A stretch of 64,000 bases of DNA, from positions 81,396-145,395 of the forward strand of contig JANRKF010000013.1 in the NCBI GenBank assembly GCA_033763575.1. Direction: 5' to 3'. Position numbers and translations under genes: made by a program. Each line of letters begins with the position of its first letter. Position 1 is the first letter of the stretch. The notes below the pieces were generated by a model. That model searched no databases. It saw only the letters and a list, made by a program, of their open reading frames with translations, and was not told the origin of the DNA. Below, piece by piece: positions 3,470-52,500 of this stretch. Origin of the DNA: Alphaproteobacteria bacterium (GTDB taxonomy: Bacteria; Pseudomonadota; Alphaproteobacteria; Rickettsiales; SXRF01).

Positions 3470-3897
3470 AAATATCCGAGAACGGCCTCCTCCTCATCAA
3501 GCGGTTCGAGGGGTTCTCGGCCACTCCTTATCTATGCCCGGCGGGGAAGCTGACCATCGGCTACGGGCATGTCCTAGCCCCGCATTTATTGCGGGGTCCG
3601 GTGACAATAAAAGAAGCCGAAAAACTTCTGCTTGCGGATCTGGCCCCCGTCGAGGCCGCCATCAACCGGCTGGTCGTGGCTCCGCTCACCCAGAACCAGT
3701 TCGATGCGCTATGCTCGCTCACCTATAATATAGGGGTGGGGGCGTTTGCAAAATCGACGTTGTTGCGCTTACTGAACACCACCAACCACCAACCATCAAC
3801 CACCAACCAATTTTCCCGCTGGGTCTATGGGGGTGGAAAACGCCTCGCCGGGCTGGAAAAACGCCGCCGCGCCGAAATGGAATTGTTTCAGCAATAA
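3466..3897 (+). CDS. GH24 phage-type lysozyme (endolysin)
   Basis: MKISENGLLLIKRFEGFSATPYLCPAGKLTIGYGH... has the canonical E-(8)-D/C-(5)-T lysozyme N-terminus. ...FDALCSLTYNIG...RWVYGGGKRLAGLEKRRRAE matches the family C-terminus. Confidence 0.85.
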   Translation: MKISENGLLLIKRFEGFSATPYLCPAGKLTIGYGHVLAPHLLRGPVTIKEAEKLLLADLAPVEAAINRLVVAPLTQNQFDALCSLTYNIGVGAFAKSTLLRLLNTTNHQPSTTNQFSRWVYGGGKRLAGLEKRRRAEMELFQQ

Positions 3898-4057
3898 CCC
3901 TCCCCCCTTGAGGGGGAGGGAAGGGTGGGGGGTGGCGGAATAAATGAGAAACTGAAATAGGTAGCAACCACCCCTCCCCCAACCCCTCCCTCAAGGGGAG
4001 GGGGATATCTATAAAATACAACAAGATAATTATAACACCCCCCACCCCCCCGCCACC
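3898..4057. repeat. Composite nested palindromic repeat (family 1, CCCTCCCC-N4-GGGGAGGG hairpins)
   Basis: Hairpins ccctccccccttgagggggaggg (3898-3920) and cccctccctcaaggggagggg (3983-4004). gggtggggggtggcgg (3923-3938) is inverted at 4038-4057. Internal segments resemble the elements at 21824-21958 and 38966-39126. Confidence 0.7.
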
Positions 4058-6108: not shown

Positions 6109-6151
6109 AGCCCCGCACTTGTTGCGGGGTCTGGTCTTCTTATAAGGCATT

Positions 6152-6185: not shown

Positions 6186-6218
6186 GTAGCCGGACCCCGC
6201 AATAAATGCGGGGCTTGG

Positions 6219-9972: not shown

Positions 9973-10926
9973 ATGTCTGTTTTGTCTCTTTCCACCCCTC
10001 TGCGCGGCCATGCCGCCGTGGTGCTTTCCCAGCTTGAGCGCGAGATCGCGGCGGGCACGCTCGCTCACGGCATTTTGCTTTGCGGCCCGCAAGGTATCGG
10101 CAAGGCCACGCTCGCCTTCGCGCTTGCCCAAAAACTGCTGGGCGAGGGGGTGGGGGTGGAAGCCCGCATCCGGGCCGGATCGCACCCGGACCTGCTGGTG
10201 ATTTCCCGCCCTTACGACGAGAAAAAAGAGGAATTCGCCAAGGATATTCCGGTGGAGCAGACCCGCAAGATCGCCGAATTCCTGTCGCTCACCGCAGGCG
10301 AGGGCGCGTGGCGGGTGGTGATTATCGACGGCGCCGACGCGATGAATATGAGCGCCGCCAATTCCATCCTGAAAATTCTGGAGGAGCCGCCGCCCAACAG
10401 CGTGCTGATCCTGGTTGCCCATCAGGCCAGCCGCCTGCTGCCGACCATCCGCTCGCGCTGCCGCACCACCCGTGTGGCCCCGCTTTCCGAAGACGATTTT
10501 ACCGAGGTGATGCGCCATGCGCTGCCCGACCTCAGCCGCGAACATGGCCGGCGGCTCGGCGAACTCAGCGATTATGCCCCCGGCCTCGCGCTTACCCTCC
10601 ACGAGCAGGAAGCGCTCGACATGCAGGACCAGATGGAGCTGATTTTTGCCGGGTTGCCGCGCATCGCGCATGAGCGGGTGCTCGCCATGGCCGAACAGGT
10701 CGGCAGCGGCAAGCAGCACGCCAACTGGCAGCTTTTCTCGCGGCTGGCGCTCCACTGGATGGCAAGGCAGGCGCACATTACCGGCAGCAGCCATTGGGCG
10801 GAAGGCTGGCAACAGACCAGCCAGACATTCGCCACTTGCGAAGCGCGGCACCTTGACTATAAATCGGCGGTCATCAGTTTCTTCCACAGCCTGCCCAACC
10901 TCCAACCCACCGCACGTTCCGCATGA
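9973..10926 (+). CDS. holB: DNA polymerase III subunit delta'
   Basis: AAA+ clamp-loader motifs: HGILLCGPQGIGKATLAFALAQ (Walker A-like), VVIIDGADAMN, ANSILKILEEPP, TIRSRC. The start could be GTG 9952 or ATG 9973. Confidence 0.8.
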   Translation: MSVLSLSTPLRGHAAVVLSQLEREIAAGTLAHGILLCGPQGIGKATLAFALAQKLLGEGVGVEARIRAGSHPDLLVISRPYDEKKEEFAKDIPVEQTRKIAEFLSLTAGEGAWRVVIIDGADAMNMSAANSILKILEEPPPNSVLILVAHQASRLLPTIRSRCRTTRVAPLSEDDFTEVMRHALPDLSREHGRRLGELSDYAPGLALTLHEQEALDMQDQMELIFAGLPRIAHERVLAMAEQVGSGKQHANWQLFSRLALHWMARQAHITGSSHWAEGWQQTSQTFATCEARHLDYKSAVISFFHSLPNLQPTARSA

Positions 10927-12590
10927 GCCATTACTACATTACCACCCCGATTTATTATGTGAACGACCGCCCGCATATCGGCCATGCCTATACCTCGGTG
11001 GCGTGCGACGTGCTGGCCCGTTTCAAGCGCCTTTCCGGCGAAAACGTCCGATTTCTGACGGGTACGGACGAGCATGGGCAAAAGGTCGAAAAATCCGCAG
11101 CCGCACAGGGTATCTCCCCACAAGCCATGGCCGATGCGAACTCGCAACATTTCCGGGACATGGCGCAGCTCATGAATATCAGCAACGACGATTTCATCCG
11201 CACCACCGAGCCGCGCCATAAAAAAGCCGCGCAGGCATTATGGAAAAAAATGGCGGATCAAGGCTTCATCACGCTGGGTTCCTATGCCGGGTGGTATGCC
11301 GTGCGCGACGAAGCCTACTATGCCGAATCCGAATTGGTGAACGGCAAAGCCCCCACGGGCGCGGATGTCGAGTGGGTGGAGGAGCCGAGCTATTTCTTCA
11401 CGCTCTCGGAGTTTCAGGACAAGTTGCTGGCGTTTTACGAGGCCAACCCCGGCTTCATCCAGCCCGATTCCCGCCGCAACGAGATCATCAGCTTCGTGAA
11501 GGGAGGCCTTCGGGATTTATCCATCAGCCGCACCACCTTTAGCTGGGGTATTCCAGTGCCAATCACCTCCCCCAATAGGGGGGAGGGAGTACACATCATG
11601 TATGTCTGGCTGGATGCGCTCACCAACTATCTCTCGGCGCTCGGCTACCCCGAAAACACCCCGGAAATGGCCTTCTGGCCGGCCAGCCTGCACATGGTGG
11701 GGAAGGACATCATCCGCTTCCACGCGGTATACTGGCCGGCCTTCCTGATGGCCGCCGATTTGCCACTGCCGAAACAGGTCTTCGCGCATGGCTGGTGGAC
11801 GATCGAGGGCGAAAAAATGAGCAAATCGCTGGGAAATGCCATCGCGCCCGCCGATCTCGTCGCCGAATTCGGCCTCGACCAGACCCGCTGGTTCCTGATG
11901 CGCGAAGTGCCCTTCGGAAACGACGGCAATTTCAGCCGCGAGCGCATGATTACGGTCATTAACAGCGAGCTGGCCAACAATATCGGCAACCTCTGTCAGC
12001 GCACGCTGTCGATGATTGCCAAGAATTGTGATGGGAAAGTGCCAAATTGGAGTAAAAGTTGGGGCAGCAATCCAGACGACATAAAAAAAGCAGTGGAAAG
12101 AGCCTTAGCTCTTCCGCTCGGGGAATATGCTAAATTAACAAAAGAAGAGACTGCAAAACTTGAATCTTTAGCTCAGTTATATGATAGCGGCGGGGTATCT
12201 GCATCTGCTGTAGGAATCCGTGGTATTGATTTTGAAACAATTGCAGATCAAGTAAGCCACTGCCAATTTGATAAATATCTTGGAAATATAATTAAATGGT
12301 CATCTGAGGCAAATGAGTACATTGATAAATACGCGCCTTGGACATTTAAAAAAGAGAGTAAGCTAGAAGAGATGGAAGCTGTCCTTTTCTCCTTAGCTGA
12401 ATCTATTCGTAAAATAGCAATTTTACTTTGGCCAGTAATACCCACCTCTGCCGCTAAGATTCTTGATCAGTTGGCCGTGCCCCCTGCCGAGAGGGGGTTC
12501 AAGCATTTGAGTGCCGAATTCGCCCTGAAACCGGGCACGCCTCTCCCCCCCCCGAGTGGCGTATTCCCTCGCGTGGGGGGCGCGGTGTGA
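10923..12590 (+). CDS. metG: Methionine--tRNA ligase
   Basis: MSHYYITTPIYYVNDRPHIGHAYT (HIGH motif) ...KMSKSLGN (KMSKS motif). ATGA overlap with holB. Contains a short repeat-derived insertion (11563-11592) and an AT-rich 3' segment. Confidence 0.93.
   Translation: MSHYYITTPIYYVNDRPHIGHAYTSVACDVLARFKRLSGENVRFLTGTDEHGQKVEKSAAAQGISPQAMADANSQHFRDMAQLMNISNDDFIRTTEPRHKKAAQALWKKMADQGFITLGSYAGWYAVRDEAYYAESELVNGKAPTGADVEWVEEPSYFFTLSEFQDKLLAFYEANPGFIQPDSRRNEIISFVKGGLRDLSISRTTFSWGIPVPITSPNRGEGVHIMYVWLDALTNYLSALGYPENTPEMAFWPASLHMVGKDIIRFHAVYWPAFLMAADLPLPKQVFAHGWWTIEGEKMSKSLGNAIAPADLVAEFGLDQTRWFLMREVPFGNDGNFSRERMITVINSELANNIGNLCQRTLSMIAKNCDGKVPNWSKSWGSNPDDIKKAVERALALPLGEYAKLTKEETAKLESLAQLYDSGGVSASAVGIRGIDFETIADQVSHCQFDKYLGNIIKWSSEANEYIDKYAPWTFKKESKLEEMEAVLFSLAESIRKIAILLWPVIPTSAAKILDQLAVPPAERGFKHLSAEFALKPGTPLPPPSGVFPRVGGAV
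11563..11592. repeat. Family-1 hairpin (cctccccc-aata-ggggggagg) embedded in frame in metG
   Basis: cacctcccccaataggggggagggagtac encodes ITSPNRGEG between the conserved GIPVP and HIMYVWLDAL blocks. Confidence 0.6.
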
Positions 12591-13366: not shown

Positions 13367-13372
13367 AGACAC

Positions 13373-13464
13373 GTCATTGCGAGGAGGCAACGCCAACGAA
13401 GCAATCCATCTCTCAACAAGCGGGGGCATGGATTGCCGCGCTCCCGGTGGTCGCTCGCAATGAC
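13373..13464. repeat. Family-2 palindromic element (GTCATTGCGAG...CTCGCAATGAC)
   Basis: gtcattgcgaggaggcaacgccaacgaagcaatccat...atggattgccgcgctcccggtggtcgctcgcaatgac has terminal and internal inverted repeats. Related copies are at 48027-48105, 39212-39284, 24031-24114 and 32050-32114. Confidence 0.75.
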
Positions 13465-13481
13465 GAGAACGGAGCATTATA

Positions 13482-20323: not shown

Positions 20324-21193
20324 ATGAAATCCGATTTCACCTTCGCCAAAGACGACGCCCACCGCTTCCTGCCATGGCATATCGGCATCATGGTGGCGCT
20401 CGCCACCTTCCTGCTGTCGCTGGTGCTGGCGCTCGGCGGCTGGGTCGGCGACCACCGCGAGGATTACACCGCGAATATTTCGGTCATCCTGCCCGGCGCG
20501 CTCGAAAATCTCGATGATAAAACCGCCAGGGTCAAAGCCGTCCTCGGCAAGGAAAAATCCATCGCCGAGGTGAAGCAGGTGAGCGAAAGCAACCTGCGCG
20601 AGCTGCTGGTGCCATGGATCGGCAACGGCGACGCGCTGCTCGATATGGCGCTGCCGGTGGTGCTTGACGTCACCCTGAAAGAAGACGCCGCGCCGCTGGA
20701 TGAAAAATCGCTGCAAAAAGCCCTTTCCGACATCGAACCGACCATCGAACTCGATACCCATAATAGCTGGGCGGAGGTATTCGCCACCTTCATCCGCATC
20801 CTGCAAGGGCTGGCGGTGACGCTGGTGGCGACCATTCTGGGCGCGATGACGCTGATGATCGTGTTTTCCGCCCGCGCCTCGCTGCACCTGCACCAGCGCA
20901 CGGTGGACCTGCTGCATGCCATGGGCGCGGAAGACGGCTATATCGCCCGCCAGTTCCAGCATGAGCATTTCAAGATCGGCCTGAGGGCCGCGGCCATCGG
21001 TACGGCGGCGGCGGCATTCGCCTATTGGGGCCTCGGCCTCTGCGTTGCCGCCATCAAGGCGCCAGTGCTGCCAAGCTTCGCTTTTTCCCAGCCGCATATC
21101 GCGCTGGTGCTGCTGATGCCGCTCGGCTGCGCGCTGGTCGTGCGTTATACCACGCGGGTTTCGGTGCTGGGCCAGCTAAGGGAAATCCTCTGA
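20324..21193 (+). CDS. ftsX: Cell-division ABC transporter permease FtsX
   Basis: One N-terminal TM, a periplasmic loop and three C-terminal TMs, with the conserved LHAMGAEDGYIARQF block. No ftsE lies upstream in this window. Confidence 0.75.
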   Translation: MKSDFTFAKDDAHRFLPWHIGIMVALATFLLSLVLALGGWVGDHREDYTANISVILPGALENLDDKTARVKAVLGKEKSIAEVKQVSESNLRELLVPWIGNGDALLDMALPVVLDVTLKEDAAPLDEKSLQKALSDIEPTIELDTHNSWAEVFATFIRILQGLAVTLVATILGAMTLMIVFSARASLHLHQRTVDLLHAMGAEDGYIARQFQHEHFKIGLRAAAIGTAAAAFAYWGLGLCVAAIKAPVLPSFAFSQPHIALVLLMPLGCALVVRYTTRVSVLGQLREIL

Positions 21194-21810
21194 TGCTCAC
21201 AATGTTCCGCACGCTGTTCTGCACCCTGATGCTGGTGGCGGTGTGGGCGCTCGCGGTCGCCGGGTTCGCTTTCTACATCAACCAGTATGCGCTGGAAGAA
21301 AATGCCCGCGCCGATGGCATCGTGGTGCTGACCGGCGGCGGCGGACGCATCGAATATGGCCTCGAATTATTCGGACAAAATCGCGGCAGGCTGCTCTTCA
21401 TCAGCGGCGTCGGCAAGCAGGTGCCGCTTGCCGACCTGCTGGTCAAGGCTCCCGATGCCGCGCAGGCGATATTAAACGGCAATACGCTGGGCCGCATCAC
21501 GCTGGGCCGCGAGGCGGCCAACACCATCGGCAACGCCAGGGAAAGCACCGACTGGATCAAAAAACACCACCTGAAATCGGTGCTGCTGGTCACCGCCGAT
21601 TACCATATGCCACGGGCGCTGATGGAGTTTTCCACCGAGCTTCCCGGCAATGTCATCCTCATCCCGGCCCCGGTCAAAACCCAAAACTACATTGATTTTA
21701 CATGGATCAGAGATGCCGAGATCCGCAATATCGTGCTCGCCGAATTCCACAAGCTGATCGCCGCGCAAATCCGGCATTATGTCATCAGCACAAGCGATGA
21801 AGCCGCATGA
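21193..21810 (+). CDS. YdcF/DUF218 family protein
   Basis: N-terminal TM, then GIVVLTGGGGRIEYGLELF, LLFISGV, VTADYHMPRA (DUF218 blocks). ATGA overlap with ftsX. Confidence 0.7.
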   Translation: MLTMFRTLFCTLMLVAVWALAVAGFAFYINQYALEENARADGIVVLTGGGGRIEYGLELFGQNRGRLLFISGVGKQVPLADLLVKAPDAAQAILNGNTLGRITLGREAANTIGNARESTDWIKKHHLKSVLLVTADYHMPRALMEFSTELPGNVILIPAPVKTQNYIDFTWIRDAEIRNIVLAEFHKLIAAQIRHYVISTSDEAA

Positions 21811-21823
21811 TTCTCCTGCGCTC

Positions 21824-21958
21824 ATATTCCTCCCCCAGTAGGGGGGAGGCCAGGAGGGGGGCATTATTTATTCCGCCTCCCGTGGATGCCCCCACCCCCC
21901 TACGCCCAGTGGCTTCGGGGGACGCAGCCCCAACCCTCCCCCTAATGGGGAGGGCGCA
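21824..21958 (+). mobile_element. Family-1 palindromic element (about 135 bp, MITE/RPE-like) flanked by a 17-bp direct duplication
   Basis: atattcctcccccagtaggggggagg...ccctccccctaatggggagggcgca. Flanks are atgattctcctgcgctc (21807-21823) and atgattttcctgcgctc (21959-21975). Its reverse complement is about 85% identical to 38966-39126. Confidence 0.8.
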
Positions 21959-22657
21959 ATGATTTTCCTGCGCTCGCTGCTGTTCAATATTCTGTTTACC
22001 GCCTGGGCGTTCGTTACCTCGGTATTGTTTGCGCCGCTCTTCCTGATATCGCCGAAAAGCGCGGGCAAGCCGTGGGCGCGGGGGGCATTGTGGCTGGCGA
22101 AAACCATACTCGGCATCACCCACGAAGTGCGTGGCCGCGAGCACCTCACCAACCAGCCGGTGATCTATGCCTCCAAGCATCAATCGGCGTGGGATACGAT
22201 TATTTTTTTGGTGCTGCTCGACGCGCCGTGCTATGTGCTGAAACGTGAGCTGCTGCGCATTCCCGGCTGGGGTTGGTATCTGTGGCGGATGGGCATGATC
22301 GCCATCGACCGCTCCGGCAGCGCCAGCGCCATGAAACAGATGCTGCGCGACGCGAAGGCACGCATCAGCGAGGGCCGCACCATCGTGATTTTCCCCGAAG
22401 GCACCCGCAAAAAACCCGGCGACGCGCCGGACTACCACCCGGGCGTGATCGCGCTCTATAGCCAGCTCGGCGTGCCGACCATCCCGGTCGCGCTCAATTC
22501 CGGCCTGTGCTGGGGTAAGGATGCGTTTTTCAAAACACCCGGGAAAATCATCATCAGCTTCCTGCCGCCCATCCCGCCGGGTTTGCCCAAAAAAGAATTC
22601 ATGGAGACACTGCAGCCACAGATAGAAACAGAGAGCAGCGCACTCGCCGGCCTTTAA
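21959..22657 (+). CDS. plsC: 1-acyl-sn-glycerol-3-phosphate acyltransferase
   Basis: HQSAWD (HX4D) and FPEGTR acyltransferase motifs, with an N-terminal TM. Confidence 0.85.
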   Translation: MIFLRSLLFNILFTAWAFVTSVLFAPLFLISPKSAGKPWARGALWLAKTILGITHEVRGREHLTNQPVIYASKHQSAWDTIIFLVLLDAPCYVLKRELLRIPGWGWYLWRMGMIAIDRSGSASAMKQMLRDAKARISEGRTIVIFPEGTRKKPGDAPDYHPGVIALYSQLGVPTIPVALNSGLCWGKDAFFKTPGKIIISFLPPIPPGLPKKEFMETLQPQIETESSALAGL

Positions 22658-32114: not shown

Positions 32115-32231
32115 CTCGTGCCACATACTGAATAACCCTAGCCCCCGCAACAAGTGCGGGGTGACAAAAGAAAGAAACGACCACCATTTTTTATCAACCA
32201 TTTTCCCCAAGAAAAAGTAAGGAGAATCACT

Positions 32232-36572: not shown

Positions 36573-36669
36573 GTACAAGCTATTATTCGGTCGGTGATGA
36601 GAGCGCAGCAGGCGCGAACCAGCCATGAGCAAGCTTCATGCGATTTGCAGGAGCAAATCGCGGAAGCAG

Positions 36670-37812
36670 CTATAAAAGCTCCTCATACACCGCCAGCGTT
36701 TTCTCACACATGGTATCGAGTGAAAAACGCTCCGCCTGCTTGCGCGCATCGCGGGCGATGTGCTGCTGCATCGTTTCATCCAGCCCCATCACGTTCTCGA
36801 TCGCGGCGGCGAGCGCCCCCACATCACCCGGCGGCACCAGAAGACCTGTTTCCCCGTGAATCACCGTTTCCTGAGGCCCGCCGTGGCTGGTGGCGATCAC
36901 CGGCTTGCCCATCGCCTGCGCTTCCAGCACCACGCGGCCAAACGCCTCCGGCTCAATCGATGTGGCAACCACCACCCGCGCCAGCATATAGGCCTCGGTG
37001 ATATGCTGCGTATGCTCGGCAAAGCGCACATGCTCCTCCAGCCCCAGCTCGGTGATGAGCGACTCCAGCTCGCCGCGATAGCTCCCGCCTTTTTTATCGT
37101 CGCCTAAAATCACCGCGAAGAAATGACGGTGCGGCAGCGCGGCGAGTGCGCGCAGGAACACGTCCTGCCCTTTCCAGCGGGTGATGCGGCCGGGAAATAA
37201 AATCACCGGCAGCTCCATCGGCAGCCGCCATTCCTTGATCAGCGCGTCCATCCGCTGGTGCGAAAATAAATCGGGGGTGAATAAATTCAGATCCACCCCG
37301 CGATGGATGATGCGGATATTGGCCGGATCGACCGCATAATTCGCCTTGATATGCTCGGCGATGAAATTGGAAATGGCGATCACCCGCTCGCCCTTCACCA
37401 TCACGCTGTTATAGCGGTGCTTGAAACGGTTCTGGATGCCGTAGGTGCCATGGAAGGTGGTGACGAAACGGCAGCCGGTCTTATAAGCCGCAAGCCACGC
37501 GCACCATGCCGGCGCACGGCTTCTGGCATGCACGATATCCACCCCATGCTCGCGGATGATGCCCACCAGCGCACGCGCATTGCGCCACACGGTGAAGGGG
37601 TTTTTGCTATCGAGCGGCAGGGTGATATGCTCGGCGCCAAGGCGAAACAGCTGATACATCATCTTGCCGCCGCTGGAGGCGACCAGCGCCCGTCCGCCCG
37701 CCTGCTGGATGGCACGGGCGATTTCCACCGTACCGCGCTCTACCCCGCCGCTGGAAAGAGCGGGCAGCACTTGCAGAATGACAGGGGGCTTTTTATCGTG
37801 CATGGGGTACAT
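36670..37812 (-). CDS. Glycosyltransferase family 4
   Basis: ILQVLPALSSGGVERGTVEIA... and a C-terminal EX7E region EPEAFGRVVLEAQAMGKPVIATSHGGPQETV. The start is set at the ATG with a GGAGG RBS. Confidence 0.8.
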   Translation of the reverse strand: MYPMHDKKPPVILQVLPALSSGGVERGTVEIARAIQQAGGRALVASSGGKMMYQLFRLGAEHITLPLDSKNPFTVWRNARALVGIIREHGVDIVHARSRAPAWCAWLAAYKTGCRFVTTFHGTYGIQNRFKHRYNSVMVKGERVIAISNFIAEHIKANYAVDPANIRIIHRGVDLNLFTPDLFSHQRMDALIKEWRLPMELPVILFPGRITRWKGQDVFLRALAALPHRHFFAVILGDDKKGGSYRGELESLITELGLEEHVRFAEHTQHITEAYMLARVVVATSIEPEAFGRVVLEAQAMGKPVIATSHGGPQETVIHGETGLLVPPGDVGALAAAIENVMGLDETMQQHIARDARKQAERFSLDTMCEKTLAVYEELL

Positions 37813-37914: not shown

Positions 37915-38172
37915 ATGGAAGTGGTCAACTACACGGAAGCGCGTGCGAATTTGAAGCAACTCATGGATAAAACCTATGACGATTCGACGCCGATCATCAT
38001 CACCCGCCAGCGCGGCGCAAAGCCTGTGGTGATGATGTCGCTCGACAGCTATAATTCCATGGAGGAGACGATGTATCTGTTGCGAAGCCCCGCGAATGCA
38101 AAATTCCTGCGTGCGGCGGTGGAAGACGTGCGCAAGGGAAAATACAAGAAGCATAAATTATTGCCTGCATGA
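37915..38172 (+). CDS. yefM: Phd/YefM-family antitoxin
   Basis: MEVVNYTEARANLKQLMDKTYDDSTPIIITRQRGAKPVVMMSLDSYNSMEETMYLLRSPANA is canonical YefM. Confidence 0.88.
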   Translation: MEVVNYTEARANLKQLMDKTYDDSTPIIITRQRGAKPVVMMSLDSYNSMEETMYLLRSPANAKFLRAAVEDVRKGKYKKHKLLPA

Positions 38173-38429
38173 ATGTCTGCTTCCATCCCAAGGCGTGGCA
38201 GCAATATGTCGAATGGCAGGTTTATGACAAGCAGGTGCTCAAAAAAATCAACCACCTCCTCAAAGACATCCAGCGCTCCCCATTCGAGGGTATCGGCAAG
38301 CCCGAACCCCTCGCCTATGAGTTTTCCGGTTTCTGGTCGCGGCGCATCACCGATGAGCACAGGCTGGTTTATACTATCGATGACGGCAACATTATCATCG
38401 TGCAATGCCGTTATCATTATGATGGCTGA
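38169..38429 (+). CDS. yoeB: Txe/YoeB-family toxin
   Basis: ...AWQQYVEWQVYDKQVLKKINHLLKDIQRSPFEGIGKPEPL...GFWSRRITDEHRLVYTIDDGNIIIVQCRYHY(DG). ATGA overlap with yefM. Confidence 0.9.
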   Translation: MNVCFHPKAWQQYVEWQVYDKQVLKKINHLLKDIQRSPFEGIGKPEPLAYEFSGFWSRRITDEHRLVYTIDDGNIIIVQCRYHYDG

Positions 38430-39386
38430 ATGATGGCTGAATTTCTTGAAACCCCCGCCCATCCGCTCGCCTACCGCACACAGGAAGGCAGCGGCCCCAC
38501 GGTGATGTTCTGCACCGGCTTCATGTCGGACATGGCGGGCACCAAGGCCGAAACGCTTTCCACCCATTGCGCCGCACGCGGGCAATCCTTCATCCGCTTC
38601 GATTATTCCGGCCATGGCCAGTCCGGCGGCGATTTCATGGACGGCACCATCGGCCAGTGGAAACGCGATACGCTGGCGGTGCTGGACGAACTAACCGAAG
38701 GGCCGGTGGTGCTGGTGGGCTCCAGCATGGGCGCATGGCTGGCCCTGCTCGCGGCGATGGAAAGGCCCGAACGCATCAAAGCCCTCATCGGCATTTCCGC
38801 CGCGCCGGATTTCACCGAACGGCTGATCTGGCAGAAGCTCGCCGCCGCCCAGCAGCAGGAATTGCTGGAAAAGGGGGTGTTTTACGCGCCATCCTGCTAT
38901 GGTGAAGCGCCCTACCCCATCACCCGCAGGCTGATTGAGGAGGCGCGGTCGCACCTGCTTATTACTCCCTCCCCATCCGCCTGCGCGCAAGCGCTGCGGC
39001 GGGACAAGTTAGGGGGAGGGTCGGGGCTGCGCCCCCCGAAGCCACTGGACATAGGGGGGTGGAGGCATCCACGCTCGGATGGAGAAAATAATGCCCCCCT
39101 CCTAACCTCCCCCCTACAGGGGGAGGATATTCCCATCCACCTGCTACACGGCACAAGGGATGAGGATGTGCCGGTGGAAATCGCCCATTTGCTGGTTGAA
39201 AGGTTAAAATCGTCATCCTGCGGCCCACAACGTGGGAGCACAGTATCCATGGATTCTGCGCAGCCTTCCGGCTCGCAGAATGACAATACAAGAATACAAC
39301 TCGCCCTGATTGAGGGCGGCAACCACCGCTTAAGCGAACCCGAAGATTTGCGCTTGCTTTGCCGTACCGTTTGTGATATTAGTTAA
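38430..39386 (+). CDS. Alpha/beta-fold hydrolase carrying two in-frame repeat-element insertions
   Basis: GSSMGAW nucleophile elbow, HGTRDEDVP (Asp) and GGNHRLS (His). The frame stays open across elements at 38966-39126 and 39212-39284. Confidence 0.75.
   Translation: MMAEFLETPAHPLAYRTQEGSGPTVMFCTGFMSDMAGTKAETLSTHCAARGQSFIRFDYSGHGQSGGDFMDGTIGQWKRDTLAVLDELTEGPVVLVGSSMGAWLALLAAMERPERIKALIGISAAPDFTERLIWQKLAAAQQQELLEKGVFYAPSCYGEAPYPITRRLIEEARSHLLITPSPSACAQALRRDKLGGGSGLRPPKPLDIGGWRHPRSDGENNAPLLTSPLQGEDIPIHLLHGTRDEDVPVEIAHLLVERLKSSSCGPQRGSTVSMDSAQPSGSQNDNTRIQLALIEGGNHRLSEPEDLRLLCRTVCDIS
38966..39126 (-). mobile_element. Family-1 palindromic element inside the hydrolase CDS (inverted relative to 21824-21958)
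   Basis: Its reverse complement aligns by eye with 21829-21954 at about 85% identity. The terminal hairpin loop holds an extra ~33-bp palindrome (ccgcctgcgcgcaagcgctgcggcgg). Confidence 0.8.
39212..39284. repeat. Family-2 variant element inside the hydrolase CDS (GTCATCCTGCG...CTCGCAGAATGAC)
   Basis: gtcatcctgcggcccacaacgtgggagcacagtatccatggattctgcgcagccttccggctcgcagaatgac. It has the same termini and central atccatggat core as 13373-13464. Confidence 0.7.
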
Positions 39387-46246: not shown

Positions 46247-46323
46247 TGGCGTGCCCGGAGGGATTCGAACCCCCGACCTGCAGCTTAGAAGGCTGCCGCT
46301 CTATCCAACTGAGCTACGGGCAC
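46247..46323 (-). tRNA. tRNA-Arg (anticodon TCT)
   Basis: Reverse complement gtgcccgtagctcagttggatagagcggcagccttctaagctgcaggtcgggggttcgaatccctccgggcacgcca folds as a cloverleaf. Anticodon loop is cTTCTaa, CCA is encoded. Confidence 0.9.
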
Positions 46324-46502: not shown

Positions 46503-46579
<77 letters not shown>

Positions 46580-47210: not shown

Positions 47211-47314
47211 ATAAACCTCCGCACCTGAACCGTTATGTGAGCGCAGCAGCGCGAACCAGCCTTGAGCCAGCTTCATGCGAAAGTCAGCAGACTTTCGCGG
47301 AAGCCTCCTTAAAG

Positions 47315-48118
47315 TTAAACCGTCCCGAAGCTCTTAATAAGGCTCCCCGCCAGCATATACCAGCCGTCGATCAGCACAAAGAAAATAATCTTGAACGGCA
47401 GCGAGATCACCACCGGCGGCAGCATCATCATCCCCATCGCCATCAGGATGGAGGCCACCAGCATATCGATGATGATGAACGGGATAAACAGCAGGAAACC
47501 GATCTCGAAAGCGCGTTTCAGCTCACTAATCATGAAGCCGGGAATGAGCACGCGGTAGGGCGTATCGGCAGGCGTTTCGATGGTGAGGCCCGGCGACATA
47601 TCGACAAACAGTTTCAAATCCTGCGCCCGCACATGCGCCAGCATGAAGGCATGAAACGGCGCGCCGATTTTTTCCAGCGCCTCTTTCTCGTCAATGCGCT
47701 CTTCCAGCAACGGCTGCACGCCCTGCTCATACGACGCCTGAAACACCGGCGCCATGATGAACAAAGTAAGGAACAGCGCCAACGAAATGAGCACCTGGTT
47801 GGGCGGCGTCTGTTGCAGGCCGAGCGCGCTTCGCAGCATGGAGAGCACGATGATGATACGCATGAACGAGGTCATCATCACCAGGATCGAAGGCGCAAGG
47901 CTGATGACCGTCATCACGATAATGAGCTGGATCAGCCGCCCGGTCGCGCCGCCGCTGGTGGTGTTCCCGAGGTCGATATTCATCGACTGGGCAAAGGCAT
48001 TATCAGTGTGCATAAACAAGGTTATCGTCATTGCGAGGAGGCATAGCCGACGAAGCAACCCAATTTTCTGATGGCTGGATTGCTTCGCCTGCGGCTCGCA
48101 ATGACGTACATTAAACAT
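47315..48118 (-). CDS. fliP: Flagellar type III export protein FliP
   Basis: ...LIQLIIVMTVISLAPSILVMMTSFMRIIIVLSMLRSALGLQQTPPNQVLISLALFLT is canonical. ATG 48118 overlaps the fliO stop. Residues 5-31 are encoded by a family-2 element. Confidence 0.85.
   Translation of the reverse strand: MFNVRHCEPQAKQSSHQKIGLLRRLCLLAMTITLFMHTDNAFAQSMNIDLGNTTSGGATGRLIQLIIVMTVISLAPSILVMMTSFMRIIIVLSMLRSALGLQQTPPNQVLISLALFLTLFIMAPVFQASYEQGVQPLLEERIDEKEALEKIGAPFHAFMLAHVRAQDLKLFVDMSPGLTIETPADTPYRVLIPGFMISELKRAFEIGFLLFIPFIIIDMLVASILMAMGMMMLPPVVISLPFKIIFFVLIDGWYMLAGSLIKSFGTV
48027..48105. repeat. Family-2 palindromic element inside the 5' end of fliP
   Basis: gtcattgcgaggaggcatagccgacgaagcaacccaattttctgatggctggattgcttcgcctgcggctcgcaatgac. 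Confidence 0.8.
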
Positions 48119-51205: not shown

Positions 51206-51279
51206 TTGATAGTTGTTGGTTGTTGGAAAAATAAAACCCTGCTACACCACCAACTATCAACCACCAACCATCAACCGCC
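51205..51279. repeat. Family-3 heptamer-built palindromic element
   Basis: Left arm gttgata-gttgttg-gttgttg, loop aaaaataaaaccctgctaca, right arm caccaac-tatcaac-caccaac-catcaac. Confidence 0.7.
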
Positions 51280-51546: not shown

Positions 51547-51640
51547 AATGGTTGCCAGGTTTCTGGGTTGCTAGGTTTCTTGGTAAGGATTACATTGCTA
51601 CACCTAGCAACCTAGAAACTCAGCAACCCAGCAACCACCT
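51547..51640. repeat. Family-3 palindromic element (ggttgc/aggtttc arms)
   Basis: ggttgccaggtttctgggttgctaggtttcttggt - loop - acctagcaacctagaaactcagcaacccagcaacc (imperfect ~35-bp arms). Confidence 0.7.
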
Positions 51641-51644
51641 TCCG

Positions 51645-52409
51645 ATGACCCTCAATGATTTCCTTGTCTCCGAAATATTCACCTTCCTGCTGATTTTCTG
51701 CCGGGTGGGCACGGCGTTGATGATTCTTCCCGGTTTCGGCGAAGCATTTGTGAGTGCGCGTGTGCGGCTGCTGCTGGCGCTGATGTTTAGCCTGGTGCTC
51801 ACCCCGGCGCTGCCCGATTTCCCCGCCCCGCCCAGCCACGTATTCACGCTGATGACCATCATGATGGCGGAAATTCTCACCGGTATTTTCTTCGGGATGC
51901 TGGGCCGCCTGATGCTGGCTGCGATCAGCACCGCCGGTATGATCATCGCCTACCAGGCCGGGCTGGCCTCGGCGCTGGTGCAGGACGTAACGATTGCCGG
52001 CGGCCAGGCCTCCAGCCTCGGCAACCTGCTCGGCATCACCGCGATGGCGCTGCTGTTCGCCACCAACATGCATCATCTGATGTTGCAGGCGCTGATGGAC
52101 AGCTACCAGATTTTCCCGGTCGGGCAGTTTCCGAATGTCGAGGATTTCACCTGGCAGGCGGCGAAGATCGTGAACAGCTCGTTCCTGATTTCGCTGCAGA
52201 TCGCCGCCCCCCATATCGTCATTGGGCTGGTGGTCTATCTCGCGGGCGGTATCACCGGGCGGCTGATGCCGAGCCTGCAGGTGTTTTTCATCCTGCTGCC
52301 GCCGCAGCTAATACTCAGCTTTTTCGTGCTGATGGTGGCGTGGAGCAGCATTATGATGTGGTATATGGATTATTTCCGCGACGGCATCTCACAGTTTGTG
52401 GGGCAGTAA
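51645..52409 (+). CDS. fliR: Flagellar type III export protein FliR
   Basis: MTLNDFLVSEIFTFLLIFCRVGTALMILPGFGE... with multiple TMs. The upstream part of the track ORF is repeat sequence. Confidence 0.85.
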   Translation: MTLNDFLVSEIFTFLLIFCRVGTALMILPGFGEAFVSARVRLLLALMFSLVLTPALPDFPAPPSHVFTLMTIMMAEILTGIFFGMLGRLMLAAISTAGMIIAYQAGLASALVQDVTIAGGQASSLGNLLGITAMALLFATNMHHLMLQALMDSYQIFPVGQFPNVEDFTWQAAKIVNSSFLISLQIAAPHIVIGLVVYLAGGITGRLMPSLQVFFILLPPQLILSFFVLMVAWSSIMMWYMDYFRDGISQFVGQ

Positions 52410-52411
52410 AG

Positions 52412-52500
52412 GAGTCTTGGTTGCTAGGTTGCTTAGTCTCTTGGTAAGCAATCAGAAACCAGGTAACATAGAGACCAAGTAACCTAGAGACCTAGAAACC
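52412..52500. repeat. Family-3 palindromic element
   Basis: gtcttggttgctaggttgcttagtctcttggt - loop - accaggtaacatagagaccaagtaacctagagacctagaaac. Confidence 0.65.

Follow-up and report, generated by a model that had tools for sequence, protein, structure and literature searches.

Palindromic inserts lying in frame within genes are a textbook feature of Rickettsia. The Rickettsia palindromic elements RPE-1 to RPE-10 (Ogata et al. 2000, 2002; PMC10969869) are palindromic sequences of ~100–150 nt that are found between genes and also in frame within housekeeping genes unrelated to one another, where frame and orientation vary and the positions are fold-compatible, and no transposase is known for them (PMC10969869). 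REP, BIME and REPIN sequences, associated with RAYT proteins, are short hairpins rich in G/C, either single or in inverted pairs, with no obvious target duplication (Di Nocera et al. 2013, PMC3733652; Nunvar et al. 2010, PMC2817692), and in-frame intragenic REPs, including some in tRNA synthetase genes, are known outside Rickettsia (Di Nocera et al. 2013, PMC3733652). Bacterial MITEs (Correia/NEMIS, ERIC, Nezha and Coxiella QMITE1; PMC10969869, PMC5896051) are small and non-coding, have terminal inverted repeats, give in-frame fusions, and have longer relatives with a gene between the same ends. The Vsr-like nucleases comprise E. coli Vsr, Caulobacter VsrA (PMC12907096) and I-Bth0305I (3r3p; PMC3424549), the last representing a branch of selfish homing nucleases (PMC3424549); DUF559 proteins fall in the same PD-(D/E)XK group.

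In the 64-kb stretch of alphaproteobacterial DNA analysed here (the window), a G/C-rich palindromic sequence, E3, lies in frame within a hydrolase gene (Table 1). E3 is very probably one copy of a small mobile repeat that is palindromic, non-coding and MITE- or REPIN-like, and it is tolerated in an intact hydrolase.

Table 1. Positions of the hydrolase gene, its inserts and the element copies in the window.
Feature	Positions	Strand	Description
Host gene, ABHD10-like alpha/beta serine hydrolase	38430–39386	plus	318 aa; two in-frame palindromic inserts
E3, element copy	38967–39127	minus	161 nt; G/C-rich palindromic; codes for about residues 180–233
E3 left arm	39094–39127	minus	hairpin CCTCCCCC-TGTA-GGGGGGAGG at 39106–39126, then TTAGGAGGGGGG; codes for APLLTSPLQGED
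E3 right-arm hairpin	38967–39020	minus	CCCTCCCC ... GGGGAGGG; loop enlarged by nested insert; located by alignment with the E2 hairpin (21934–21954) and DNA fold
Nested 33-nt GC-rich palindrome	38977–39009		inside right-arm loop of E3; codes for SACAQALRRDK
Internal module CCAGTGGCTTCGGGGGRCGCAGCCCC	39023–39048	minus	26 nt; common to E2 and E3
Second in-frame insert of hydrolase	39211–39285	plus	CGTCATCCTGCG...CGCAGAATGACA palindrome, CGTC...GACG type, of another family than E3
E2, element copy	21828–21954	plus	127 nt; between genes
E1, element copy	3898–4005	plus	108 nt; diverged subfamily with TTGA/TCAA loops
Lone arm hairpin	11566–11586		CCTCCCCC-AATA-GGGGGGAGG; in frame in metG (10923–12590); exact pattern match

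Structure of the element and its insertion in the hydrolase gene

The repeat put forward in the original prediction (38966–39126 against 21829–21954, at ~85% identity) was recovered as 38967–39127 against 21828–21954. The reverse complement of E3 aligned with E2 with 111 matches and 16 mismatches, i.e., 87.4% identity over 127 aligned bases, and with 34 gap columns that correspond to one 33-nt block and one 1-nt indel. The same pair was found in an independent repeat search of the window as I1 (90 nt, 81%) and I2 (47 nt, 89%).

The element is a long inverted repeat with two arms of ~33 nt, each carrying its own 8-bp hairpin, and a variable spacer between them. An arm is composed of a 21-nt hairpin, CCTCCCCC-loop-GGGGGGAGG, followed by yyAGGAGGGGGG, and arms were paired in inverted orientation both in the window and in the metagenome copies described below. 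In many copies the loop of one terminal hairpin is the complement of the other (CAGC/GCTG, TTGA/TCAA, AGTA/TAxT), so that each arm constitutes a terminal inverted repeat. The left arm of E3 fits the arm pattern exactly, and its 25 specified bases recur in more than 120 metagenome loci. The palindrome nested in the right arm of E3 is missing from E2 and occurs only once in the window; some DUF559 cassettes have a comparable nested insert, of 39 nt, in their arm hairpin. The internal module is suggested to be lineage-specific: its 26-nt core CCAGTGGCTTCGGGGGRCGCAGCCCC occurred exactly twice in the window (0.00 expected) and was absent from the listed metagenome copies of the family, and a 21-nt internal motif gave only three chance-level matches (Mycobacterium, Christensenellaceae and Cyanobium) in 185,579 species genomes.

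The terminal hairpin motif was found at four sites of the window, as compared with 0.01 expected. In all, the window contains three full copies (E1, E2 and E3) and one lone hairpin. When a looser scan was applied to 20 shuffles of the window, unit matches were obtained in none of them and hairpin matches in one. E2 occupies the 148-nt spacer between a DUF218 gene (21025–21810) and a PlsC-type acyltransferase gene (start at 21959), its last GGGGAGGG stopping 4 nt upstream of the ATG of the latter; its DNA fold z-score was −2.55, and no promoter-like or terminator-like site was found in the region 21600–22200. E1, which directly follows the stop codon of a gene for a lysozyme of phage type (3466–3897), was supported by an arm match with three mismatches and by inverted repeat I4 of the repeat search; its loop type is also present in loci L075, L078 and L024. 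A hairpin at 3576–3596 was ruled out as a length insertion in this lysozyme gene, the Pfam Phage_lysozyme match being colinear (residues 12–137 against model positions 1–125). The lone hairpin of metG codes for part of ITSPNRGEG, and the alignment of the metG product with Brucella MetRS 4dlp (E 3e-173) contained a 6-residue gap facing ITSPNR.

The product of the host gene matched the Pfam families Hydrolase_4, Abhydrolase_1 and Abhydrolase_6, and its best solved relatives were mouse ABHD10 (6ny9), S. meliloti SM0281 (8trf) and A. vitis 3llc. The HMMER alignment to these relatives breaks into three pieces at the two inserts, and a Foldseek comparison of the hydrolase model gave target-normalised TM-scores of 0.85–0.87 to ABHD10, SM0281 and 3llc (0.85 to 6ny9). 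Judged from its sequence, the gene is intact. As had been predicted, the 318-aa frame 38430–39386 is open throughout the E3 segment, and the nucleophile elbow GSSMG (residues 97–101, of G-x-S-x-G type), the conserved Asp (D244/D246) and the conserved His (H299) all occupy columns that are invariant in an alignment of 77 sequences.

An ancestral domain was not indicated by the orthologues, which lack the segment: the stretch from HLLL to LLHG measures 19–22 residues in 74 of 76 orthologues versus 67 in the window protein. The gene of the closest orthologue, P0002, is 62–73% identical and has 28 nt where the window gene has 172 nt (38960–39131), corresponding to E3 with A/T-rich flanks; the 20.8-kb contig of P0002 contained no copy of the element family. 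Since 172 nt replace these 28 nt, about eight ancestral codons (EKPIPLHC) were lost, and the net gain at the site is 48 aa (+144 nt). The insertion itself agreed with the original prediction, but not its net size of ~55 aa. The pairing by MAFFT of PKPLDI in the insert with KPIPL of the orthologues was rejected as a coincidence because the intergenic copy E2 also encodes PKPLGV.

In the window copies, one frame per orientation is shut by several stops, including the TAG of the arm loop or the TAA in CCTAACC. The equivalent strand of E2 had been described as free of stops, which holds for the other frame but not for the one that matches the hydrolase reading in its first half, where a TAA follows directly after ...GHPREAE. 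E3 gets past this TAA only because the 1-nt indel moves the reading to the other open frame.

Structure prediction, which had been suggested as a check on the insert, gave an AlphaFold model with a core pLDDT above 90, in which residues 184–225 of the insert were below 50 and had no secondary structure. In this model, the E3-derived Gly/Pro-rich stretch of about 55 residues thus forms a disordered loop that is not part of the confident core. A word-index protein search with the 56-aa peptide insert gave no match and missed the source protein itself too. An exhaustive search with the insert among 1.84 billion representatives returned one true relative, P0126, which is another element copy, together with P0122 and P0123; three more entries, P0121, P0124 and P0125, proved on inspection to be translated CRISPR arrays.

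The second insert of the hydrolase comprises most of the extra residues 262–288, with pattern matches at both ends; it opens with CGTC and closes with GACA/GACG, and its sequence fits the CGTC-tagged REP class (PMC3733652). Residues 261–290 had a mean pLDDT of 53–66 per 10-residue block. This palindrome is older than the E3 insertion; it is common to P0002, at the same position (L004:10638–10728), and missing from all other orthologues. The sole other length exception at the E3 loop, P0016, has an unrelated CGTC...GACG palindrome there. The E3 loop is apparently a permissive site, entered by an unrelated palindrome in the P0016 lineage. Three independent palindrome insertions, in two loops, were thereby counted in one hydrolase family.

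The E3 copy would have been acquired after the split from the lineage of the closest known relative, by entry into the loop that joins the final helix of the cap (residues 166–175) to strand beta-7 (residues 236–241), with the displacement of about eight codons. E3 persists because the gene was left unbroken, with a net addition of 144 nt, a stop-free frame, untouched catalytic Ser, Asp and His blocks and an encoded stretch that is modelled as disordered. Most likely, the insert is tolerated as a passenger and is not a functional domain.

The family in other genomes

Repetition elsewhere, on which the original prediction depended, was found not only within the 64 kb but also in more than 120 metagenome loci, from many environments, that contain the same arms. 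Elements with both arms measured 77–194 nt in the metagenome set and 108–161 nt in the window. The two ~33-nt arms were mutual reverse complements, loops included, in 45 of the 128 matches with both arms detected. No consistent target-site duplication was seen beside the arms, an isolated case being AACTT in L049. A blastn search against plasmids gave no match, possibly owing to low-complexity masking, no Rfam family matched the element, and a literature search for the hairpin sequence returned nothing relevant.

The RPE-like behaviour attributed to this distinct G/C-rich family was borne out by in-frame copies in housekeeping genes of other genomes. In addition to the hydrolase, where the site is a disordered loop by prediction, and metG, the palindromic repeat lies in frame in at least 14 other, unrelated protein families. 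Pfam domains were present on both sides of the insert in all ten proteins scanned (TrmD, QueA, Xth, IlvB, ClpB, Acs, an ABC exporter, EtfB, IspE and CarA); PolA, TatB and a prohead protease are further carriers, and an AddB-like protein, listed with no Pfam check, reads through one copy. The listed in-frame copies use four reading frames, two per orientation. A composite query of the four frame peptides added only the PolA and TatB fragments. These protein searches therefore undercount in-frame copies.

The family decorates at least 15 proteins, several of them essential (TrmD, IspE, MetRS, PolA and ClpB), and the insertions provide a natural map of protein sites that tolerate 25–55 extra residues. 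For annotation purposes, the peptides PPPVGGRLGGG, SPxRGEVRRG, APLLTSPLxGEE and PPPNLPPxGGG mark repeat-derived inserts and not domains.

DUF559 cassettes and their possible part in the spread of the element

A Pfam DUF559 ORF (E 1e-34 to 1e-38) abuts an arm in nine of 120 arm-selected loci, and in the six loci examined closely the ORF is bracketed by two arms or arm-type hairpins. The association was also observed from the side of the protein: at DUF559 loci picked by protein similarity alone, a pyrimidine/purine hairpin stood beside the gene in 22 of 28, and the hairpin density at these 28 loci was 4.86 per kb near the gene versus 0.20 per kb elsewhere (24-fold). The cassettes measure 436–584 bp, have inverted repeats of ~40 bp and are found in differing genomic contexts; their only ORF is the DUF559 nuclease, with a 110-aa Vsr-like domain. 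Short elements and DUF559 cassettes from soil contigs have both arms in common, including arm-specific differences, and they also have sequence in common beyond the arms. Because homology of the aligned soil cassettes extends ~57 nt past one arm, the arms are not their outermost ends. Long flanking direct repeats (19–30 bp), at variable distance, were present at three of 12 cassettes. A motif scan of the 64-kb window found neither a DUF559 nor a Y1-transposase gene, and no paper linking DUF559 to hairpin-bearing inverted repeats or to a dispersed repeat family was found in the literature searched.

The element would owe its movement to a trans-acting protein whose gene lies elsewhere in the genome, and the best candidate, put forward tentatively, is the DUF559 (Vsr-like PD-(D/E)XK) nuclease of the cassettes with the same arms. 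The DUF559 cassettes may be the autonomous partners of the short elements. On this basis the G-rich hairpin-in-arm repeats could possibly represent gene-less derivatives of undescribed small cassettes (440–580 bp, with inverted repeats of ~33–40 bp), in which the DUF559 candidate would recognise pyrimidine/purine hairpins and drive the spread of both, coding sequences included; this proposal is likewise tentative. If true, bacteria would have a further, new kind of mobile element, and DUF559, a very widespread domain, would gain a function that can be tested with the purified protein and a 33-nt oligonucleotide. The odd inserts rich in Gly and Pro that are common in proteins of bacteria would also be accounted for. 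To our knowledge, DUF559 proteins are small nucleases without known strand-transfer activity.

DUF559 genes could instead home into palindromes. The short elements would then be empty target sites of a homing-type nuclease gene, spread by another route such as recombination or hairpin replication slippage, and DUF559 would be a parasite and not the engine. The position of the DUF559 ORFs at the centre of the palindrome supports this explanation, as do the grouping of DUF559 with Vsr and the group I intron homing endonuclease 3r3p (PMC3424549) and the direct repeats at three of 12 cassettes, whose variable distance is unlike a classical transposon footprint. It is nevertheless somewhat unlikely, as it leaves unexplained the short copies at unrelated sites within many genes, and the sequence common to short elements and cassettes beyond the arms fits a deletion derivative equally well.

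Movement by a RAYT, an IS200/IS605-like tyrosine transposase that reads a GTAG head on a single-stranded hairpin, would make the family a REP/REPIN-type element. The arm loops of E2 and E3 are indeed of the form xGTAG (AGTAG, TGTAG), a longer GTAG...CTAC hairpin can be drawn (GTAGGGGGG...CCCCCCTAC), the units form inverted pairs as in REPINs with no target duplication seen, and intragenic GTAG and CGTC REPs are on record, including clusters that encode 43–82 aa (PMC3733652). However, GTAG is not conserved across the family: it is lacking in E1, in the lone metG hairpin (AATAG) and in most metagenome copies, which have CAGC/GCTG, TTGA/TCAA or CCTC/GAGG loops. Moreover, a crude motif scan of the window and of 810 kb from the 120 arm-selected loci detected no Y1-transposase-like ORF, whereas the identical scan flagged ten DUF559-like ORFs, nine of which were confirmed by Pfam. 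This route of movement is decidedly unlikely.

That the host has co-opted the insert for a role in the enzyme, for instance as a lid, tether or interaction loop, is very improbable. The insert adjoins the cap domain, its frame has been preserved, with the 1-nt indel evading the stop of the intergenic copy, and the same loop carries an insert in a second lineage (P0016). Yet E3 is young, since it is 87% identical to the intergenic copy; the insert is predicted to be disordered, is missing from the closest orthologue, and has no conserved peptide among the 1.84 billion representatives other than in one further element copy. Decay of the gene to a pseudogene, or an assembly artefact at the segment, is scarcely credible: the source is a metagenome-assembled genome and repeats can cause misassembly, but the gene is in frame on both sides and retains every invariant residue, two separate inserts preserve the frame, the 16 substitutions and two indels of E3 are not those of a collapsed repeat, and in-frame copies are present in essential genes (trmD, ispE) of other assemblies.

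Comparison with known systems

The G/C-rich family, taken as a tolerated mobile repeat, resembles the Rickettsia palindromic elements in the features of size, placement, use of frames and orientations, and lack of a known transposase cited above. It differs from them in its poly-C/poly-G hairpins, in a genome of ~55% G+C and an uncultured alphaproteobacterial host that is not a Rickettsia, in its hairpin-inside-inverted-repeat structure, in its presence in many environments and in its candidate protein partner, DUF559. Membership among the RPEs by sequence is unlikely on account of base composition and host, and the likeness claimed is one of behaviour only.

With REP sequences the family has in common an imperfect palindrome of 20–40 nt and frequent inverted pairs (21-nt hairpin, 33-nt arm). 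Unlike in REPs, GTAG is found only in some subfamilies and is placed in the loop, and the gene between the arms is a DUF559 nuclease and not a tyrosine transposase, no RAYT having been found in a crude motif scan. The terminal inverted repeats bounding a short non-coding element, and the longer relatives with a gene between the same ends, are in agreement with MITEs; no consistent target-site duplication was seen, and, in contrast to MITEs, the longer relative encodes a Vsr-like nuclease and not a DDE or other known transposase. The DUF559 cassettes also differ from Vsr, VsrA and I-Bth0305I, around which no hairpin-bearing inverted repeats are reported in the literature searched. The G/C-rich family is new by sequence, and its RPE-like behaviour is a known kind of phenomenon.

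The palindromic element in the hydrolase gene

The reverse complement of E3, the copy of the G/C-rich palindromic element inside the hydrolase gene, aligned with the intergenic copy E2 (Table) at 87.4% identity over aligned bases (111 matches, 16 mismatches), the gaps being one 33-nt block and one 1-nt indel; the coordinates and the identity of about 85% estimated in the original prediction were thus correct. The same pair was detected independently by a repeat finder (I1, 90 nt, 81%; I2, 47 nt, 89%). Against an expectation of 0.00, a 26-nt core was present exactly twice in the window; for the terminal hairpin motif, four sites were found where 0.01 would be expected. The element unit was matched in none of 20 shuffles, and the hairpin in one of 20.

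The ORF (318 aa) remained open across the E3 segment and matched Pfam alpha/beta-hydrolase families. Its closest solved relatives were mouse ABHD10 (6ny9), S. meliloti SM0281 (8trf) and A. vitis 3llc, and the HMMER alignment to these was split in three, exactly at residues ~188–232 and 262–289. Comparison with orthologues lacking the insert, a search for further copies and structure prediction had been proposed as checks. The HLLL-to-LLHG distance was 19–22 residues in 74 of the 76 orthologues and 67 in the window protein. The gene of the closest orthologue, P0002, has 28 nt opposite 172 nt of the window, and therefore the net gain in the window gene is 144 nt (48 codons); about eight ancestral codons (EKPIPLHC) are absent from it at the insertion site. 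No element match was found in the 20.8-kb contig carrying P0002, nor was an empty insertion site recovered from any close relative.

GSSMG, D244/D246 and H299 were invariant columns of the alignment. In an AlphaFold model built with 77 sequences the core had pLDDT >90, and target-normalised TM-scores on ABHD10, SM0281 and 3llc were 0.85–0.87. The E3 insert was modelled between helix 166–175 and strand 236–241, directly before the catalytic Asp, as a loop without secondary structure (residues 184–225, pLDDT <50); the second extra segment had pLDDT 53–66. Both the observation and its interpretation as an in-frame RPE-like palindrome were upheld, with minor corrections. Directly upstream of the hydrolase lies a YefM/YoeB type II toxin-antitoxin pair; the stop codon of YoeB is immediately adjacent to the start of the hydrolase gene.

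Residues 262–288 are mostly encoded by a different palindrome, of the CGTC...GACG type (CGTCATCCTGCG...CGCAGAATGACA). This insert is older than E3, being shared by P0002 at the identical position and missing from every other orthologue. In another orthologue, P0016, the loop corresponding to the E3 site contains an in-frame CGTC...GACG palindrome, with the ancestral residues kept. This third event is independent of the other two, so that two loops of the hydrolase family have together received three insertions.

Coordinates of the features (positions in the window unless a locus is named)
Feature	Position	Remark
E1	3898-4005	directly after lysozyme gene
E2	21828-21954	between DUF218 gene and PlsC-type gene
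E3	38967-39127 (-)	inside hydrolase gene
Lone hairpin	11566-11586	in frame in metG
Last GGGGAGGG of E2	21947-21961	ends 4 nt ahead of acyltransferase ATG
YefM/YoeB pair	37918-38429	
Hydrolase ORF	38430-39386	
Segment opposite 28 nt of P0002 gene (L004)	38960-39131	
Second palindrome	39211-39285	in P0002 gene, L004:10638-10728
Its intergenic relatives	13372-13465, 48026-48106	
Possible further CGTCAT...ATGACG-type copy	63539	
Palindrome in P0016 gene	L125:6545-6620	
Direct repeat of L141 cassette	L141:1373-1402, 1904-1933	includes first codons of neighbouring gene
A/T-rich stretch	12048-12270	in frame in metG
CCCCGCA-nnnnn-TGCGGGG hairpins	3576-3596, 6111-6131, 6190-6210, 32140-32161	third small family
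65-nt direct repeat	36612-36676, 47249-47313	77% identity
ACCAACC-type repeats	3776-3808, 51244-51276	first in lysozyme gene, encoding NTTNHQPSTTNQ; second 47 kb off
GGTTGCTAGGTT-type 8-nt periodic repeats	51549-51584, 52410-52445	flanking ORF 51552-52409
tRNA genes	46250-46323 (-), 46503-46576 (+)	divergent

Anatomy, reading frames and distribution of the element

Comparison of many copies gave a long inverted repeat with the consensus layout (CCTCCCCC-loop-GGGGGGAGG yy AGGAGGGGGGC) - spacer - (GCCCCCWCCCy AA CCCTCCCCC-loop'-GGGGGAGG). Because the loops of the two arms are mutually complementary (CAGC/GCTG, TTGA/TCAA, AGTA/TAxT), each ~33-nt arm is a terminal inverted repeat with a hairpin inside. 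A 29-nt internal module is common to E2 and E3 and absent from other family members; in addition, the right-arm loop of E3 contains a nested GC palindrome of 33 nt that E2 does not have. The last GGGGAGGG of E2 could be the ribosome-binding site of the acyltransferase gene, sequestered within the arm hairpin. The lone metG hairpin corresponds to a 6-residue gap opposite ITSPNR in Brucella MetRS (4dlp, E 3e-173).

In E2 the frame equivalent to that used in the first half of the hydrolase insert meets TAA right after ...GHPREAE; in E3 a 1-nt indel in the spacer switches translation to the second open frame (...ENNAPLLTSPLQGED). The shift may reflect selection to keep the frame open, but E2 is not the parental copy of E3, which makes this an inference. 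In the window copies one frame per orientation is closed by several stops, such as the TAG of the arm loop or the TAA of CCTAACC. In-frame copies of the family are read in four different frames, two for each orientation, with the peptide signatures PPPVGGRLGGG, SPxRGEVRRG, APLLTSPLxGEE and PPPNLPPxGGG.

Besides the three full copies in the 64 kb of this genome that were covered, over 120 metagenome stretches among the matches listed contained the arm pattern (25 specified bases). A stop-free frame spans the element in TrmD, QueA, Xth, IlvB, ClpB, Acs, AddB-like, ABC exporter, EtfB, IspE and CarA genes; all ten proteins of this group that were scanned had Pfam domains on both sides of the insert. 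Further in-frame carriers were PolA, TatB and a prohead protease. A single high-copy composite repeat, made up of two tandem hairpins, the arm and a conserved ~60-nt tail (GTTCAGCGCCGCATGCGCGTAGGTGAGCAGCCTATGTTCACG...), accounts for about 40% of the listed arm matches (Ga0308xxx and Ga0272446 samples; e.g., L009, L010, L013, L015, L023) and probably comes from one abundant organism.

DUF559 cassettes bracketed by the arms

When the window and 810 kb of arm-selected loci were scanned by motif for Y1-transposase-like ORFs, none was detected. An ORF abutted an arm in nine of 120 such loci, and all nine were Pfam DUF559 (E 1e-34 to 1e-38), a Vsr-like nuclease domain; in all six loci studied in detail it was enclosed by a pair of arms or arm-type hairpins. 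The alignment of six related copies, from three or more genomic contexts, ended sharply, on the right just past the arm plus TAAAA and on the left ~57 nt beyond the other arm, with the arms falling within the DUF559 reading frame itself. Both arms recur, with identical arm-specific differences, in short gene-less elements from the same soil assemblies; these elements also have some sequence beyond the arm in common with the cassettes.

An independent set of 28 good matches was taken from viral contigs by DUF559 protein similarity alone. The hairpin CCTCYCCC-loop-GGGRGAGG was present ≤180 nt upstream or ≤150 nt downstream of the gene in 22 of these, and on both sides in 13; its density was 4.86 per kb near the gene versus 0.20 per kb in the remainder of those loci (24 times higher). 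The cassettes, found in different genomic contexts, measure 436–584 bp and are bracketed by inverted repeats of ~40 bp, each with the pyrimidine/purine hairpin (metagenome and viral loci L012, L016, L020, L022, L034, L041, L042, L060, L062 and L126–L156). Direct repeats of 19–30 bp occur 3–64 nt outside the arms in three of 12 cassettes (L141, L126, L130), a pattern unlike a classical target duplication of fixed length.

The association of DUF559 with the hairpin arms is solid; the nuclease may move the repeats, home into them, or merely use them as expression signals. DUF559 has been grouped with Vsr and a homing endonuclease (PMC3424549). The Caulobacter DUF559 protein VsrA, classed by its authors as a putative Vsr-like endonuclease, was shown to account for the SOS response of cells without the ScmA methyltransferase (PMC12907096). 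No link between DUF559 and repeats was found in the literature searched.

Other repeats and relation to known repeats

The A/T-rich metG stretch is non-palindromic, with G+C apparently well below that of the surrounding gene, and adds ~40 residues relative to Brucella MetRS (query 376–450 versus 398–431). One CCCCGCA-nnnnn-TGCGGGG copy lies within the lysozyme coding sequence, the length of lysozyme being unchanged. The 65-nt direct repeat, with an internal hairpin (GCGATTTGC...GCAAATCGC / GCGAAAGTC...GACTTTCGC), represents a further family of dispersed repeats. Rfam matches in the window were confined to the two tRNA genes.

The wider distribution and the DUF559 link add to the interest of the finding. 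In-frame palindromes are already on record, both among Rickettsia RPEs (PMC10969869) and in the case of some GTAG/CGTC REPs (PMC3733652). The phenomenon is thus of a known kind, and the sequence family itself is without description in the literature searched; like those repeats, it has in-frame copies within protein genes.
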